The notes under the pieces: model-generated | The model's input: only the letters and a program-made list of their open reading frames with translations | Databases searched by the model: none | Told to the model about the DNA's origin: nothing | Shown: piece after piece, positions 2,067 to 16,033 of the stretch | How positions within the stretch are numbered: the stretch's first letter is position 1 | Layout: the number at the start of each line of letters is the position of its first letter | Position numbers and translations under genes: made by a program | Virus record (IMG/VR): IMGVR_UViG_3300043444_000502 | Coordinates: 1 to 64,000 of that record | Source: a virus | Taxonomy: Duplodnaviria; Heunggongvirae; Uroviricota; Caudoviricetes | Strand: one strand, 5' to 3' | Length of the DNA: 64,000 nt

Positions 2067-2708
2067 ATGGATATTCCATTATTTGAACAATCGGTTAGAC
2101 ATATTTTATTTCCAACAAAAATTTGGGAATATCAATTAGCTAATACATCTGAACTCGATGTGTATGCACAAAAATTTATTGATATTCGCGAAAAAGAAGG
2201 TGGAGGTTTATATTCTGGATTAGGTAATTGGGTAAGTCCAGATGATTTACACTTGAGAACAGATTGGCAACCTATTAAAGATATTTTTTTAAGTAGAGTT
2301 GCTGCAGCAGTTGATGACTTAGGTATTTTGCATGAAGATCTATACGTAAATTGCATGTGGGGAAATTCTCATATAGGATCAAGTCAACATCAAGTACATC
2401 ATCATCCTAATAGTATGTTTTCTGGAGTATTTTATCTAAGTGCTCCTGAAGGTTGTGGAAATTTATTTTTTAAAGATCCACGCGGACCTTTGGCAAATAC
2501 ATATGTGTTTGACTATAAGGAAGGTTATAATAATTTTGAAATATATAGATTTAAACCGACTAAAGGAAAAATTATTATTTTCCCAAGTTGGTTAGAACAC
2601 GGCACAGAACCAGGAGATTTTGAAGGAGAAAGAATCTCTTTAAGTTTTAACGTAATGGTAAAAACTAAAATTTCTAAACGATCTATTAAATGGAATTATT
2701 ATGACTGA
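2067..2708 (+). CDS. 2OG-Fe(II) oxygenase superfamily protein (TIGR02466-like)
   Basis: motifs HHHPNS ... FPSWLEHG; paralog of 7569 and 8201 ORFs. Confidence 0.6.
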   Translation: MDIPLFEQSVRHILFPTKIWEYQLANTSELDVYAQKFIDIREKEGGGLYSGLGNWVSPDDLHLRTDWQPIKDIFLSRVAAAVDDLGILHEDLYVNCMWGNSHIGSSQHQVHHHPNSMFSGVFYLSAPEGCGNLFFKDPRGPLANTYVFDYKEGYNNFEIYRFKPTKGKIIIFPSWLEHGTEPGDFEGERISLSFNVMVKTKISKRSIKWNYYD

Positions 2709-2865
2709 AGATAAAAAGTGCACATGTGGTCGTTCATTAACTAGCAAATGTGTTGGTTGGCACGATTTAACTGAAGAAGAGTGGAAACAAAAATTGCTTC
2801 AAGCTGTTCAAGCTTTAACTGGACGTGCTAAACAACGCGAAATAGAGAGAAAGAGAAAAAAATGA
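2701..2865 (+). CDS. small hypothetical protein (54 aa, Cys-x-Cys, basic C-terminus)
   Basis: ATG/stop overlaps neighbours (ATGA junction at 2862); not in the >=60 aa track. Confidence 0.3.
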   Translation: MTEDKKCTCGRSLTSKCVGWHDLTEEEWKQKLLQAVQALTGRAKQREIERKRKK

Positions 2866-3131
2866 GTGAAGGCGGAAAAGGTAGTAAACCAAGACCATTT
2901 AGCATTTCTCAAGATGAGTATGATGCTCGATGGGATGCAATCTTTCAACGTGATATTCCTAAAGAAGAGCGAGTTAGTACTAAGATCGAAGATGGTTTCG
3001 AACTAGAAAGCTTAGATCCAGATCAACGTTCATGGTATTATGACGAATATGGTGTTAAACGTAAAAAAGAAAAAGAAGAAGTAAAAATCAAAGCGACGAT
3101 CCTTGATGTAAAGCTTAAAGGATCTATCTAA
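2862..3131 (+). CDS. hypothetical protein
   Basis: ORF track; compact packing. Confidence 0.45.
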   Translation: MSEGGKGSKPRPFSISQDEYDARWDAIFQRDIPKEERVSTKIEDGFELESLDPDQRSWYYDEYGVKRKKEKEEVKIKATILDVKLKGSI

Positions 3132-3136
3132 AACAT

Positions 3137-3209
3137 GCGGGCGTAACTCAGTTGGTAGAGTGCAACCTTGCCAAGGTTGATGTCGAGAGTTCGAGCCTCT
3201 TCGCCCGCT
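3137..3209 (+). tRNA. tRNA-Gly: tRNA-Gly(GCC)
   Basis: acceptor GCGGGCG/CGCCCGC, anticodon stem CAACC/GGTTG, loop TTGCCAA, T-loop TTCGAGC. Confidence 0.75.
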
Positions 3210-3220
3210 CCAACAATATT

Positions 3221-3300
3221 GCGGATGTGGCGTAATTGGTAGCCGCAACGGTCTTAGAAGCCGTCGCTTCGGCGTGTGAGTTCGAGTCTCACCATCCGCA
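3221..3300 (+). tRNA. tRNA-Leu: tRNA-Leu(TAG), class II
   Basis: acceptor GCGGATG/CATCCGC, anticodon stem ACGGT/GCCGT, loop CTTAGAA, variable arm CGCTTCGGCG, T-arm GTGAGTTCGAGTCTCAC. Confidence 0.7.
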
Positions 3301-3396
3301 CCATTAAAAATTTCCCGATAAAGCTAATCTAGTGAAAGCGCTGGTCTGAAAAGCCAGAGAGTTTGGTGCGTAACCAAATGTCGGGACCACAAATAT

Positions 3397-3469
3397 ACCC
3401 CGTTGGTGAAATGGATGATCATACAACGCTACGAACGTTGAGGTAGAGGTTCGATTCCTTTACGGGGTA
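3397..3469 (+). tRNA. tRNA-Arg: tRNA-Arg(ACG)
   Basis: acceptor ACCCCGT/ACGGGGT, anticodon stem CAACG/CGTTG, loop CTACGAA, T-arm AGAGGTTCGATTCCTTT. Confidence 0.65.
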
Positions 3470-13738: not shown

Positions 13739-13923
13739 TTATGCAGTATATTATTATGATCATTATTGTGTTAGCAGTTATTATTGGTAGTCCAATTGCA
13801 TCTATTTTATCTGTTAACACACTATTTAATTTAGCAATTCCAGTAACTATTGAAACTTGGTTTGCATCATTTTGGTTAACTAGCATTTTGGGTAGTGCTG
13901 TAATTAAAACACGAGCAAAATAA
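13729..13923 (+). CDS. small membrane protein (2 TM)
   Basis: hydrophobic segments. Confidence 0.4.
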   Translation: MGLIMQYIIMIIIVLAVIIGSPIASILSVNTLFNLAIPVTIETWFASFWLTSILGSAVIKTRAK

Positions 13924-14252
13924 TGGAATTTTTTATAATTGGATTTTTAATTGGGTTTTTCCTAGCATTTGCTATTATTCATTTTATTGCAAATTATGTT
14001 AGAAAAAAACGTGCAGACATTTTAGAAAAAGTTACAAATGATGCAATAAAAACCTTGAAAAAAACTATTATTCCTTCAAAAATTGAAGAACAAAATGGTA
14101 TGTTATTTTTATATAATTCAGAGGATAACACTTATTTAGCACAAGGTACATCATTAGAAGAGTTAGAATTGAACGTTAAAACTCGATTTCCAGATAAATT
14201 ATTTAACGTTCCTCAATCTGAAATAGACAAATATAAAAAGGAAACTATATGA
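13923..14252 (+). CDS. membrane protein (N-terminal TM)
   Basis: FFIIGFLIGFFLAFAIIHFIA. Confidence 0.45.
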   Translation: MEFFIIGFLIGFFLAFAIIHFIANYVRKKRADILEKVTNDAIKTLKKTIIPSKIEEQNGMLFLYNSEDNTYLAQGTSLEELELNVKTRFPDKLFNVPQSEIDKYKKETI

Positions 14253-14518
14253 ATACTCGATTATTTTATTCTGTCTTAATTAGCGTTACAATTATTATTT
14301 CTTCTTTGATTGTGTGGGGTATTTTAACTACACAATGGAAAACTGAAACTATTAAAATGTCTTTAGAAAAAGGACAAAATCCATTATACGCTATGTGTGC
14401 AATGGATAGTCAATCAGAATTGTGCAAATCTATGGTAACTGCAATGTCATTAAGTGGTCAATTTAAAGACACTTCTGCCCCGCAACCACAATCAGCTGCA
14501 TCAACCCCTAAAAAATAA
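14249..14518 (+). CDS. membrane protein (N-terminal TM)
   Basis: LFYSVLISVTIIISSLIVWGIL. Confidence 0.45.
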   Translation: MNTRLFYSVLISVTIIISSLIVWGILTTQWKTETIKMSLEKGQNPLYAMCAMDSQSELCKSMVTAMSLSGQFKDTSAPQPQSAASTPKK

Positions 14519-14545
14519 TATAAATACATTTTTTAAGGAAATAAA

Positions 14546-14809
14546 ATGCCAGGAATCGCAAGAGTTGGAGTTGATACCGCTGGTGGAACTATCACTGGTA
14601 ATTTAGCTCCTAATGTTAATATAAATGGAAGTCCAATAGTAGTAAAGGGTGCAACCGTTCAAGGTCATGGTCTTGGACCTCATGCATCTCCAACTATGGA
14701 TGGTTGTAGTTCTACAGTATTTGCAAATGGAATTCCAGTTTGTAGAGAAGGTGATGCAGCTACTTGCGGTCATCCAGCAACTGGATCAGGAAGCGTTAAT
14801 GCCGGATAA
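14546..14809 (+). CDS. PAAR-repeat spike-tip protein (T4 gp5.4-like)
   Basis: MPGIARVGVD..NINGSPIVVKG ... VFANGIPVCREGD..TCGHPATGSG. Confidence 0.75.
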   Translation: MPGIARVGVDTAGGTITGNLAPNVNINGSPIVVKGATVQGHGLGPHASPTMDGCSSTVFANGIPVCREGDAATCGHPATGSGSVNAG

Positions 14810-15428
14810 TATATTTGAATGCGATTTTTCTGAAGAGAAACTTATATCATTATTGCCAAATGCAAAAAATCATAAAAAATGGTTTAATGAATTAAAAACG
14901 CTTTTACCGCAATTTGAAATAAATACTACTAAACGTTTAGCGGCATTTATTTCTCAAACCTCATATGAATCTATAGGTTATACAGTATTTAAAGAAAATT
15001 TAAATTATAACGCAAATACTTTATTAACCATTTGGAATAATAAATTTACTCCAGAATCTGCACAAGCATATAGTAGAAAACAAGAAGCAATTGCTAATAG
15101 AGTATATGCAAATAGAATGGGGAATGGCAATGAAGAAAGCGGAGATGGTTGGAAATACCGCGGCCGTGGATTAATTCAAATTACTGGAAAAGACGCATAT
15201 AATAAATTTGCATCTTATATTGGAATGGATTTGGATGATACAATAGATTATTTAGAAACAACACATGGCGTAATACATGTTTCATGTTGGTTGTGGAAAA
15301 ATATGAATTTAAATGATTTTGTAGATGCAAATGATATGGTTAGCTTAATTCAAAGATTGACTCATGGTTTAATTGATGTCGATAAGCGAATTGAAGAATA
15401 TAATAAAATGATTAATATAATAGGATAA
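14799..15428 (+). CDS. GH19-like peptidoglycan hydrolase (lysozyme/chitinase class I fold); track start 14649 is an out-of-frame N-extension
   Basis: AFISQTSYES ... YRGRGLIQITGK; ATG overlaps the PAAR stop (ATGCCGGATAA); paralog of the 18109 ORF. Confidence 0.7.
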   Translation: MPDNIFECDFSEEKLISLLPNAKNHKKWFNELKTLLPQFEINTTKRLAAFISQTSYESIGYTVFKENLNYNANTLLTIWNNKFTPESAQAYSRKQEAIANRVYANRMGNGNEESGDGWKYRGRGLIQITGKDAYNKFASYIGMDLDDTIDYLETTHGVIHVSCWLWKNMNLNDFVDANDMVSLIQRLTHGLIDVDKRIEEYNKMINIIG

Positions 15429-15430
15429 GT

Positions 15431-16033
15431 ATGCAAAGCGATATTCGCGATTTTATTGGTGTATTTGATGACGCTCTTCCAGAAACTGTATGTGAAGAAT
15501 TAATAAAACATTATCATTATGTTGATCAATGGGCTTTAACTGATAAACGCACATTTGATCGCCAAGAAGCTGAACACATTGGAAAAACGTATAAAGATGA
15601 TAAAACATACTTTATGCATGAAGAACATTTAGATGAAATAAAGTTAATCAATTCTTGGCTAGCTGGTGTAATGAATAAAGCAATTAGATCTTGCATTGAA
15701 GAATACAATAAAAAATATGATGTATTATTAAATAGAGGTTATGGTTTATGGGGACATCGTCTTCAAAAAACTGGAATCGGTGCAGGTTATCACGTATGGC
15801 ATTACGAAAATAGCGGTAAAGAAGATAGTGATAGAATTTTAGCTATATTAGTATATCTTAATGACGTTGAAGAAGGCGGAGAAACAGAATTCCTTTATTA
15901 TCCTCGCCGCGTTAAACCTAAAAAAGGTAGAATCGTTATTTTCCCAGTAGGATATACTCATACACATCGTGGCAATCCTCCAATTTCTAATGAAAAATAT
16001 TTAGTTGCCACATGGACAAACAACGTAAACTGA
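15431..16033 (+). CDS. prolyl 4-hydroxylase-like 2OG-Fe(II) oxygenase
   Basis: GYHVWHYEN ... VEEGGETEF ... YTHTHRG. Confidence 0.65.
   Translation: MQSDIRDFIGVFDDALPETVCEELIKHYHYVDQWALTDKRTFDRQEAEHIGKTYKDDKTYFMHEEHLDEIKLINSWLAGVMNKAIRSCIEEYNKKYDVLLNRGYGLWGHRLQKTGIGAGYHVWHYENSGKEDSDRILAILVYLNDVEEGGETEFLYYPRRVKPKKGRIVIFPVGYTHTHRGNPPISNEKYLVATWTNNVN

Follow-up and report, generated by a model that had tools for sequence, protein, structure and literature searches.

The window analysed here, a stretch of 64,000 nucleotides from a marine T4-like phage whose large genome spans at least 246 kb, carries nine genes of the 2OG-Fe(II) oxygenase superfamily, seven of which lie in one tandem array. The explanation that we favour overall, with a probability of about one half, is that the array is an old and conserved oxygenase cassette, for which peptides or proteins are our preferred candidate substrates. 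As to their identity and evolutionary history, it is very likely that the nine genes represent three old, distinct families. Judged from their sequences, they probably encode active Fe(II)/2OG-dependent oxygenases.

Profile searches (Pfam, TIGR02466 and PHROGs) placed nine plus-strand ORFs, present where a preliminary description of this DNA had located them, in the 2OG-Fe(II) oxygenase superfamily. The ligand residues align, and the superfamily membership assigned in that description is upheld. Grouping by phmmer recovered sub-families A (four genes), B (three) and C (two), the same three that had been proposed and that the profile searches also give; no further paralogs were found by phmmer among the window ORFs. 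Seven genes follow one another on one strand in the order A1-A2-B2-B3-A3-A4-C1. The head-to-tail order with overlapping stop and start codons was likewise confirmed, with measured overlaps of 1-23 nt (successively 8, 23, 13, 14, 11 and 1 nt; the A2/B2 overlap is 23 nt, or 14 nt if B2 begins at ATG 7578). The full set of metal- and 2OG-binding residues is present in all nine genes, and these residues are invariant among their relatives on environmental viral contigs (92 for A, 63 for B and 28 for C).

Family A, which resembles Syn9 gp51/gp53 and has the motif HxD...H...R, comprises four plus-strand genes. A1 spans 6391..6987 (198 aa); an alternative start at 6376 would give 203 aa, and the gene callers used for related contigs are split between 6376 and 6391. 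The other members are A2 (6980..7591, 203 aa), A3 (8823..9440, 205 aa) and A4 (9430..10080, 216 aa), which share 8, 14 and 11 nt with the preceding genes A1, B3 and A3, respectively. All four matched phrog_274 with E-values from 2.6e-22 to 1.8e-37 (A1, 1.8e-30; A3, 3.1e-31; A4, 2.6e-22). The motif residues are H111-x-D113...H174...R184 in A1 and align as HxD...H...R in A3 and A4. The N-terminus MxEKPIxIDxVI, previously ascribed to all family A genes, is a good fit in A1 and A2 but not in A3 and A4, and the motif PH-x-D is replaced by LHVD in A1 and by IHTD in A4. In the Pfam scan none of A1-A4 reached a cut-off: A1 and A2 scored 23.5 and 24 bits against PF13640 (cut-off 27 bits), and A3 and A4 had no Pfam match at all. 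Domain-based counts would therefore miss family A. The phrog_274 label, 'DNA endonuclease V', is an annotation error. A2 showed no similarity to the T4 DenV sequence used for comparison and had no Pyr_excise Pfam match; according to Clokie 2010, denV is absent from all cyanophages.

Family B genes share the motif HxH...H...R/K, in which H-x-H...H is invariant in place of HxD/E. B1 (2067..2708, plus strand, 213 aa) is an isolated copy within a cluster of 25 tRNA genes. It scored 83 bits against PF13759 and 84.9 bits against TIGR02466 (cut-offs 27 and 62.5 bits), matched phrog_81 (E 5e-42) and the PDB entries 2rg4/3bvc (E ~1e-11), and has the residues HHH(111-113)...H178...R189. B2 (7569..8213, plus strand), of 214 aa from GTG 7569, probably starts at ATG 7578, which would give 211 aa; its orthologs in three contigs (L001, L002 and L124) are called as 211 aa. 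Its scores of 78.6 bits (PF13759) and 94 bits (TIGR02466) also exceed both cut-offs. B3 (8201..8836, plus strand, 211 aa), whose first 13 nt lie within B2, is preceded by a GGAGG-like ribosome-binding site (gggaggaaga ATG) and has the motif H-N-H...H...R. The earlier term 'TIGR02466-like' is upheld for the family; the divergent B3 passes only the PF13759 cut-off (52.2 bits; TIGR02466, 35.3 bits). Family B aligns over ~125 residues (E ~1e-11 to 1e-23) with the structural-genomics TIGR02466/PF13759 proteins 2rg4 (Oceanicola granulosus) and 3bvc (Roseovarius) and shares with them the motif H-x-H-P...H...R-I-S; unlike the proteins studied here, these are bacterial, and B3 falls under the TIGR02466 cut-off. 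Two features of the family were counted against the favoured explanation: its HxH departs from the canonical 2-His-1-carboxylate triad, and its solved relatives 2rg4 and 3bvc have no assigned function.

Family C consists of the plus-strand genes C1 (10080..10625, 181 aa), whose start overlaps the A4 stop by 1 nt (TAATG), and C2 (15431..16033, 200 aa). The description of these proteins as prolyl-4-hydroxylase-like was borne out, since both exceed the PF13640 cut-off (C1, 41.9 bits; C2, 50.1 bits) and a combined C1 and C2 profile matches the solved prolyl 4-hydroxylases (P4Hs) of B. anthracis and PBCV-1 (vCPH) with E ~2e-8. They also match phrog_61 (E 1.3e-44 and 4.6e-48, respectively). The family motif is HxD/E...H...K. 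The signature H-V-D...H-P-H given earlier holds for the H-V-D of C1 (H104-V-D106...H161...K171) but not for C2, which has H-Y-E...H-T-H...K. Collagen-type P4Hs (B. anthracis 3itq/5hv0, PBCV-1 vCPH 5c5t and Chlamydomonas 2jig) share with family C the PF13640 domain, the HxD/E...H triad and the 2OG-binding Lys. In contrast to them, the family C match is confined to the C-terminal catalytic half, C2 has HxE, and the window ORFs yielded no candidate substrate of collagen-like or proline-rich type.

C2 begins 3 nt past a lysozyme-like gene, in a tight run of PAAR (14546-14809), GH19-like lysozyme (about 14811-15428) and C2; in contig L011 its ortholog is 88% identical and has an equivalent relative position. 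A T4-type late-promoter motif, TATAAATA (14519..14526, plus strand), lies 19 nt upstream of the PAAR gene. Six of the eight plus-strand TATAAATA sites precede, by 19-45 nt, the starts of genes that belong to or adjoin the tail-fibre and baseplate modules (14546, 16771, 18103, 22802, 42714 and 51764), and we infer that TATAAATA would be used as a promoter.

Arrays of this type have already been published for the T4-like marine phages Syn9 and S-SCSM1. Synechococcus phage Syn9 has a mixed 'tandem array of multiple dioxygenases', gp45-gp54 (Iyer et al. 2010, PMC2938197), the first of its kind to be described, and the seven-gene cassette is the version of such an array carried by the present phage lineage. 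Like our phage, Syn9 is a T4-like marine myovirus in which about ten same-strand genes with overlapping ends combine several unrelated 2OG-oxygenase families within one array, and our profiles for A, B and C pick out gp51/gp53, gp45/47/48/60 and gp50, respectively. The order differs, being A-A-B-B-A-A-C here and B-?-B-B-JmjC-C-A-?-A-? in Syn9, and the array here has no JmjC/MINA member (a small JmjC-like cupin is 50 kb off), no gp52-type or gp54-type family and no adjoining tryptophan halogenase. The proteins are only about 35% identical to those of Syn9. The host lineage probably differs too: the tmRNA best fits the betaproteobacterial model (158.7 bits) and the nearest relatives of the baseplate protein gp6 belong to Methylophilales and Pelagibacter phages, suggesting that the host is probably not cyanobacterial and the phage probably not a cyanophage. 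Cyanophage S-SCSM1 has 24 2OG-Fe(II) oxygenase genes (PMC9602691), and other cyanomyoviruses have 1-5 copies (Sullivan et al. 2010, PMC3037559). Shared with these phages are numerous paralogs of low identity (no more than 44% in S-SCSM1), the presence of pfam13640 and pfam13759 among the families, and gene swapping chiefly inside the phage gene pool. What sets the present case apart is the concentration of nine genes in 14 kb with seven in a single syntenic cassette, an order preserved among contigs whose protein sequences diverge by 20-40%, and a family A below Pfam thresholds.

The favoured explanation has the seven genes read as a single transcription unit that would begin past a terminator-like GC hairpin and T-run (6351..6369, plus strand; 8-bp stem with 5 GC pairs, then TTTTTT), a consensus match only, situated between an HNH endonuclease gene (5785-6342) and A1. 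Co-expression of the cassette genes is reasonably likely. Counted against the explanation, the promoter and terminator calls are all consensus matches, and their numbers did not exceed those in shuffled controls. From the conserved residues and established 2OG-oxygenase chemistry, Fe(II) would be bound by three residues, for which family A uses HxD...H, family B HxH...H and family C HxD/E...H. A basic residue (Arg in family A, Lys in family C and either one in family B) 10-11 positions past the distal His would bind the C5 carboxylate of 2OG. O2 and 2OG decarboxylation would then yield a ferryl intermediate able to hydroxylate or otherwise oxidise a C-H bond of the substrate.

We tentatively assign the substrates, at somewhat less than even odds, to peptide or protein side chains. 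Four lines of evidence point this way: family C matches the solved collagen-type P4Hs of B. anthracis, PBCV-1 and Chlamydomonas; Foldseek ranks protein prolyl hydroxylases (PHD2, Dictyostelium PhyA, P3H1 and PPHD-EF-Tu) as the best neighbours of family A; the gene for C2 stands in close linkage with those for PAAR and lysozyme behind the late-promoter motif; and peptide modification or secondary-metabolite tailoring has been argued from gene neighbourhoods (Iyer et al. 2010, PMC2938197). Sequence identity to the HIF/EF-Tu-type prolyl hydroxylases (PHD2/EGLN1, Dictyostelium PhyA, Pseudomonas PPHD) and PiuC-type PKHD is only 12-15%. Candidate targets would be proteins of the host or of the phage, or else a peptide of ribosomal or non-ribosomal origin, with separate sites for separate paralogs. 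C2, with its place in a late PAAR-lysozyme operon, may modify virion proteins or accompany them. The host proteins, bases and virion parts named in the preliminary description are guesses. Against the favoured reading, no constant non-oxygenase neighbour gene was found across 86 viral and 36 cellular loci, and the window offers no collagen-like or proline-rich candidate.

Small-molecule tailoring, the proposal made for Syn9-type dioxygenase/halogenase clusters (Iyer et al. 2010, PMC2938197), is possible but rather unlikely. The array would then hydroxylate, halogenate or cyclise a low-molecular-weight compound, such as a secondary metabolite or amino acid, made during infection. Phage dioxygenase families have been tied to tryptophan halogenases, NRPS, sulfotransferases and prenyltransferases in the same study; four PF04820 Trp-halogenase genes are interleaved with A and B genes in related contigs (L003-L006), and halogenases adjoin oxygenases in 13/86 loci. 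However, those window ORFs that were compared with Pfam or PHROGs included no halogenase, NRPS/PKS or other scaffold-forming enzyme, the seven-gene cassettes of L001, L002 and L011 likewise lack such enzymes, and the closest relatives of family C are protein P4Hs.

Nucleic-acid repair or modification, by AlkB-like demethylases or base/tRNA hydroxylases acting on phage or host DNA or RNA, is improbable. DNA repair was the original suggestion for Syn9, as far as the citations of Weigele 2007 in Sullivan 2010 (PMC3037559) and Clokie 2010 convey it, and the place of B1 among the tRNA genes would agree with it. In cyanomyoviruses, however, this region is a recognised hot-spot for accessory genes (Sullivan et al. 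2010, PMC3037559), so the position of B1 may mean nothing. Neither the AlkB family (PF13532) nor Tet/JBP was matched in Pfam scans at E<=0.1, and the phrog_274 label is, as noted above, erroneous.

A role mainly as consumers of 2-oxoglutarate (and O2) that shift the host C/N signal is very improbable. Conserved cofactor residues would suffice for it, and an NtcA model exists for cyanomyoviruses rich in 2OG-oxygenase genes (Sullivan et al. 2010, PMC3037559), but a generic sink needs no seven distinct paralogs, fixed order or purifying selection over full length, and NtcA-based logic is unlikely to apply to a phage that is probably no cyanophage.

The age of the cassette is indicated by comparison of paralogs with orthologs. 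Paralogs in one sub-family share 27-40% amino-acid identity, and the adjacent B2 and B3 do not detect each other with phmmer (E<0.01). The seven-gene order is identical in three independent phage contigs, whose orthologs are 59-77% (L001), 58-80% (L011) and 97-100% (L002) identical. Individual values against L001 are 77% for A1 (dN/dS 0.10), 65% for B2 (0.18), 59% for A3 and 61% for A4 (0.22); ortholog dN/dS ranged from 0.07 to 0.22, indicating purifying selection at the whole-gene level. A shorter A1-A2-B2-A3-A4 backbone is kept in more distant contigs (L007-L010), and the same three families, already separate, lie together in the Syn9 array. Such clustering is general: among 90 distinct A genes in viral loci, 54 are next to an A, B or C gene, and at least three A/B/C genes occur in 40 of the 86 loci. 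Since paralogs are this divergent, syntenic orthologs are closer, dN/dS is low and the families occur together in Syn9, the paralogy is long older than this phage; the cassette was passed on as a block with occasional gain or loss of members. The preliminary description had instead suggested recent duplication and a diversifying substrate range. Put as a recent tandem expansion in this phage, now diversifying under positive selection, this is a view that the head-to-tail genes with overlapping codons and a copy number that varies from one related contig to another (5-10 genes in L007-L012, for instance) might favour but that these four observations render scarcely credible.

Two further genes, outside the array, had been counted as additional oxidative enzymes. 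Both are present and exceed Pfam cut-offs, but 'oxidative' is a loose term for the second. The first (60937..61431, plus strand) encodes a small cupin/JmjC-like protein of 164 aa (Cupin_2, 33.6 bits; JmjC_2, 30.7 bits), which had no phmmer match (E<0.01) to the tested Syn9 array proteins, including JmjC-type gp49. The second (61409..62455, plus strand), which overlaps the cupin gene, encodes a radical-SAM protein of 348 aa with a PF04055 score of 33.4 bits (cut-off 29.5).

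The preliminary description had proposed nine 2OG-Fe(II)-oxygenase genes in three sub-families between 2067 and 16033, and nine plus-strand ORFs were found at precisely these positions. Seven of them follow one another head to tail: A1 (6391-6987), A2 (6980-7591), B2 (7569-8213), B3 (8201-8836), A3 (8823-9440), A4 (9430-10080) and C1 (10080-10625). The stop and start codons of successive genes overlap by 8, 23, 13, 14, 11 and 1 nt, the A2/B2 overlap being 14 rather than 23 nt if B2 starts at the alternative ATG at 7578, as gene callers chose in related contigs. The two outliers are B1 (2067-2708) and C2 (15431-16033). 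When the nine proteins were compared by phmmer with every stop-to-stop ORF in the window, the three sub-families, A (four members), B (three) and C (two), were recovered and no tenth paralog was detected. The seven genes of the cassette are intact, conserved and co-oriented oxygenase genes that are coupled by their overlaps, and they would be expected to be co-expressed.

Profile searches and structures placed all nine proteins in the Fe(II)/2OG-dependent oxygenase superfamily (cupin clan CL0029) and upheld the family assignments. The PF13759 cut-off of 27 bits was passed by every family B protein (B1, 83 bits; B2, 78.6 bits; B3, 52.2 bits). B1 and B2 also passed the 62.5-bit cut-off of TIGR02466 (84.9 and 94 bits) and B3 failed it (35.3 bits), so that B3 is a PF13759 member outside the TIGR02466 subfamily. 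A three-member family B profile matched the structural-genomics proteins 2rg4 and 3bvc with E values of about 1e-22, and homology to these solved proteins supports a jelly-roll (double-stranded β-helix) fold. The AlphaFold2 model of B1, for which three sequences were aligned, was of poor quality (pLDDT 58.7) and was left out of the fold evidence. Literature searches found no functional study of PF13759, TIGR02466, 2rg4 or 3bvc. Family C passed the 27-bit gathering cut-off of PF13640 (C1, 41.9 bits; C2, 50.1 bits), and its profile matched solved prolyl 4-hydroxylases (P4Hs) of Bacillus anthracis, PBCV-1 and Chlamydomonas with E values of 2e-8 to 6e-4, a homology that again supports a double-stranded β-helix. 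For family A, A1 and A2 scored 23.5 and 24.0 bits against PF13640, under the cut-off, and A3 and A4 gave no match. Together with the precomputed PF13640 match present in many family A relatives, these scores make family A not a clean member of PF13640 but a divergent sister to it. It matches phrog_274 strongly. A four-member family A profile returned nothing meaningful from PDB sequences, and structure prediction was therefore needed. The AlphaFold model of A2 (66 homologs) was very confident, with a pLDDT of 95.4, and Foldseek aligned it to PHD2, Dictyostelium PhyA, P3H1 and PPHD with E values of about 1e-7. According to this model, A2 is a double-stranded β-helix oxygenase.

The metal motifs first read from the sequence were borne out by alignment, in which the sets of metal-ligand and 2OG-binding residues were complete in all nine proteins. 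The 2-His-1-carboxylate triad (HxD/E...H) is present in A1-A4, C1 and C2: family A has HxD...H with an Arg ten residues past the distal His (H174 and R184 in A1 numbering), and family C has HVD...H in C1 and HYE...H in C2 with a Lys at +10 (H161 and K171). This canonical triad is absent from B1, B2 and B3, which have HxH...H, with His in place of the carboxylate, and an Arg at +11 (H178 and R189). Among relatives on the fetched viral contigs, the family A positions were kept in 91-92 of 92 proteins and the Arg in all 92. Family C retained His, Asp/Glu and His in 28/28 and Lys in 27/28. All three His residues of family B were invariant (63/63), the basic residue being Arg in 52 and Lys in 10 of the 63, and the same His-for-carboxylate substitution is seen in 2rg4 and 3bvc. 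Since three metal-binding residues are left, metal binding by the family B site is plausible from its sequence; no published discussion of the HxH motif was found in literature searches. The Arg or Lys about ten residues past the distal His is the predicted ligand of the 2OG C5 carboxylate. None of the nine genes looks like a decayed copy.

Family A carries a misleading name. The label of phrog_274 and of RefSeq homologs, T4 endonuclease V (DenV), was rejected as an annotation error, as family A has no similarity to DenV. A2 gave E=17 in BLASTP against a manually entered T4 DenV sequence, no Pyr_excise Pfam match was found at E≤0.1, and cyanophages are described as being without denV (Clokie 2010). 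'DNA endonuclease V', 'minor coat protein' and 'ferrochelatase' are all wrong names propagated among dioxygenase families, the misnamed entries being PHROG families 274, 1644 and 3531 and gp46 and gp51-gp54 of the Syn9 RefSeq record NC_008296. Since family A scores too low for the Pfam thresholds and commonly bears the wrong label 'DNA endonuclease V', the number of dioxygenases in phage genomes is underestimated and some 'DNA repair' annotations are wrong.

The array had been attributed to recent duplication with a diversifying range of substrates. Neither part of this proposal held: paralog identity is low and closer syntenic orthologs exist in other contigs, indicating old paralogs, and selection on the orthologs is purifying. 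Within-family amino-acid identity is 29-41% in A, 27-35% in B and 39% in C, and the neighbours B2 and B3 did not detect each other with phmmer at E<0.01. Synonymous sites between paralogs are saturated at 27-40% amino-acid identity. Score patterns within family A suggest the grouping ((A1,A2),(A3,A4)) and hence duplications of long standing. The evidence that decides the matter is the presence of all seven genes, in unchanged order, in two Logan contigs, at 97-100% identity in L002 and 59-77% in L001, and in the IMG/VR contig L011 at 58-80%. In L011 an ortholog of C2 (88%) also follows about 5.6 kb downstream, matching the layout of the window. Four IMG/VR contigs that are less closely related (L007-L010) retain an A1-A2-B2-A3-A4 backbone (A1, 55-64%; B2, 46-48%), with other cassette members gained or lost. 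Nei-Gojobori dN/dS against L001 was 0.07-0.22 for the six genes with defined dS, ratios that are rough because dS was 1.3-2.8 or undefined. Against L002 it was 0.07-0.10 for the three genes showing any difference. From the shared seven-gene order and the dN/dS values, the cassette is thus an old, vertically inherited module under purifying selection and not a fresh expansion. Such a compact cassette, with its order kept under purifying selection across diverged phages, is a defined unit for heterologous expression. Between the window and L002, dS was 0.08-0.17 for A2, B2 and A4 and at most 0.009 for A1, B3, A3 and C1. This mosaic divergence between two near-identical phages suggests recent gene-sized recombination within the cassette.

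The window comes from a JGI metagenome contig of 246,141 bp (L124; 3300047554 Ga0485241_000004) and therefore belongs to a jumbo-sized T4-like phage. The T4-like context comprises gp59, gp32, gp5 and gp6 as well as a tail fibre and further baseplate genes. No GenBank phage matched 6000-16100 in a megablast search, indicating a phage without a close sequenced relative. The closest relatives of gp6 are in Methylophilales phage Melnitz (40%) and Pelagibacter myophages (38%), then in cyanophages (34%). A full-length tmRNA (16333-16721; tag peptide ANDSAYALAA) had beta_tmRNA as its best Rfam family (158.7 bits; gathering score, 84), and its blastn matches were short and all to phages of proteobacteria. 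The tmRNA hints at a beta- or gammaproteobacterial host over a cyanobacterium, and we tentatively conclude from the beta_tmRNA score and the gp6 relatives that the host is probably a proteobacterium. Among sequenced phages, all family A homologs were in cyanophages, and family C was found also in Pelagibacter, Methylophilales and Rhizobium phages. The occurrence of an oxygenase array in a phage of at least 246 kb with a probable proteobacterial host weakens cyanobacteria-specific explanations, such as NtcA/2OG signalling and cyanobacterial organohalogens.

Multi-copy 2OG-oxygenase genes are among the commonest unexplained accessory genes of marine T4-like phages, and tandem dioxygenase arrays are already in the literature. 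The array of cyanophage Syn9 has ten tandem genes that fall into five or more families, including a JmjC/MINA-type family; a halogenase link was noted, and modification of peptides or secondary metabolites was proposed (Iyer et al. 2010, PMC2938197). One to five 2OG-oxygenase genes were reported in 14 of 16 cyanomyoviruses, with a proposed link to 2OG/NtcA (Sullivan et al. 2010, PMC3037559), and S-SCSM1 has 24 from four Pfam families, at most 44% identical (PMC9602691). When applied to the Syn9 region, our profiles identified gp51 and gp53 as family A, gp45, gp47, gp48 and gp60 as family B and gp50 as family C. The Syn9 array and the cassette both consist of adjacent same-strand 2OG-oxygenase genes of several families in a T4-like marine phage; they are the same kind of object, but differ in composition and order. 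A JmjC/MINA-clade member lies inside the Syn9 array, whereas 6391-10625 contains no JmjC gene. The sole JmjC-like cupin in the window (60937-61431) had no match at E<0.01 to the tested Syn9 array proteins, gp49 included. Linkage to a tryptophan halogenase is likewise a Syn9-array feature, and no PF04820 match was found among the window ORFs scanned. Both features are typical of the Syn9 array without strictly defining it. This locus contributes a seven-gene cassette of conserved synteny from a jumbo T4-like lineage, which is divergent and probably not one of cyanophages. It also reveals that the HxH motif is invariant in family B, and it brings the mislabelled families to light.

Scanning IMG/VR with two family A motifs yielded at least 551 confirmed loci, and it supplied 80 of the 86 viral-contig loci that were analysed. 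At 40 of the 86 loci, at least three A, B or C genes were present. The immediate neighbour was an A, B or C gene for 54 of 90 distinct internal A genes, and a B gene for 31. In a distant phage group (L003-L006), four tandem tryptophan-halogenase (PF04820) genes are interleaved with A and B genes. These halogenase and oxygenase genes sit between Gly-rich or tail-fibre-like genes, for example in ENA ERZ23491310 scaffold_82 (81.8 kb). Cellular homologs of family A in GTDB genomes came from Myxococcota/Polyangiaceae MAGs, uncultured proteobacteria and Ponticaulis, and no common neighbourhood was detected among them (L088-L123). Four 'MAG' contigs with B genes and halogenases (L090, L093, L119 and L120) seem to be phage DNA assigned to the wrong bin.

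Directly upstream of the array lie a mobile-type HNH endonuclease gene (5785-6342) and, between the two, a terminator-like hairpin (6351-6369); a metallophosphoesterase gene follows downstream. L001 has speD and a deaminase-like gene instead at the HNH position. Sigma-70 promoter and terminator scans of the window showed no enrichment over shuffles, and use was made only of this hairpin and of where copies of the T4 late-promoter motif TATAAATA are placed. The motif is absent upstream of the array and, with 9 copies against 10.2 expected, is not enriched overall. Of the eight plus-strand copies, six lie 19-45 nt upstream of gene starts: those at 14519, 16727, 18050, 22764, 42669 and 51723 precede starts at 14546, 16771, 18103, 22802, 42714 and 51764, respectively, within or beside the tail-fibre and baseplate modules. 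The copy at 14519 heads a tight run of PAAR (14546), a GH19-like lysozyme and, at its end, C2.

Enzymes of this superfamily use Fe(II), 2OG and O2 to generate a ferryl species that oxidises a C-H bond, and by analogy each of the nine would do the same. The paralogs would have distinct, conserved specificities, since purifying selection on seven fixed-order genes is otherwise hard to explain. We favour peptide or protein side chains as the substrate class, with a probability of about 0.4 and on thin evidence. This preference has four grounds: family C is similar in sequence to P4Hs of the collagen type, Foldseek ranks protein prolyl hydroxylases as the best neighbours of A, the case that Iyer et al. 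made from gene neighbourhoods agrees (PMC2938197) and C2 is linked to late spike-complex genes. Candidate substrates in the form of collagen-like (G-X-Y)n or Pro-rich ORFs were not found in the window. Neighbour clustering of 86 viral and 36 cellular loci returned no conserved non-oxygenase partner or substrate gene, the cellular negative being weak because the ORF caller was crude and unreliable on high-GC contigs. The only recurrent neighbours were ordinary T4 core genes, more dioxygenases and, at 13 loci, Trp halogenases. Co-occurrence with halogenases in other contigs would fit tailoring of small molecules by the cassette enzymes, which is possible and ranks second. Nucleic-acid repair or modification comes next and is improbable, as nothing specific speaks for it and the idea stems in part from the erroneous 'endonuclease V' label. 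That the enzymes serve purely as a 2OG sink is highly improbable, since this explains neither seven conserved paralogs nor a host that is probably not cyanobacterial. Returning to peptide or protein substrates, the fixed-order, translationally coupled cassette might be a dedicated multi-step oxidation line in a non-cyanobacterial host, its target being one specific peptide or protein of phage or host (for instance a translation factor, or a component of the virion fibre or spike), with family B using a true 3-His iron site for chemistry beyond ordinary hydroxylation; this joint reading is speculative and, taken whole, unlikely.

The outlier B1 lies within a cluster of 25 tRNA genes at 62-5300 (24 from ARAGORN and one from Rfam at 3314-3386), and the tRNA region of cyanomyoviruses is a known hot-spot for accessory genes (PMC3037559). 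The cluster includes a tRNA with a CTA anticodon (5226-5300), of amber-suppressor type and called 'Pyl' by ARAGORN, and an unusually long tRNA-Ile(tat) (3479-3573). A second mobile-type nuclease, a TnsA-like endonuclease (42226-42723, minus strand), is inserted in the baseplate module. Three GH19/lysozyme-like genes were found (within 14546-15428, 18103-18732 and 46948-48324), one directly after PAAR and one after gp5, as well as a cell-wall hydrolase gene (PF07486; 27158-27679) and an SPFH/Band_7 gene (24878-25681). The gene at 33114-33629, an anti-defence gene, strongly matches Tad3, which inhibits Type I Thoeris (PF25185, 127 bits, E 3.6e-37). On the parent contig, just past the tRNA end of the window, a peroxiredoxin (AhpC-TSA/Redoxin) and a CMD/AhpD-like protein place oxidative-stress genes near the oxygenases.
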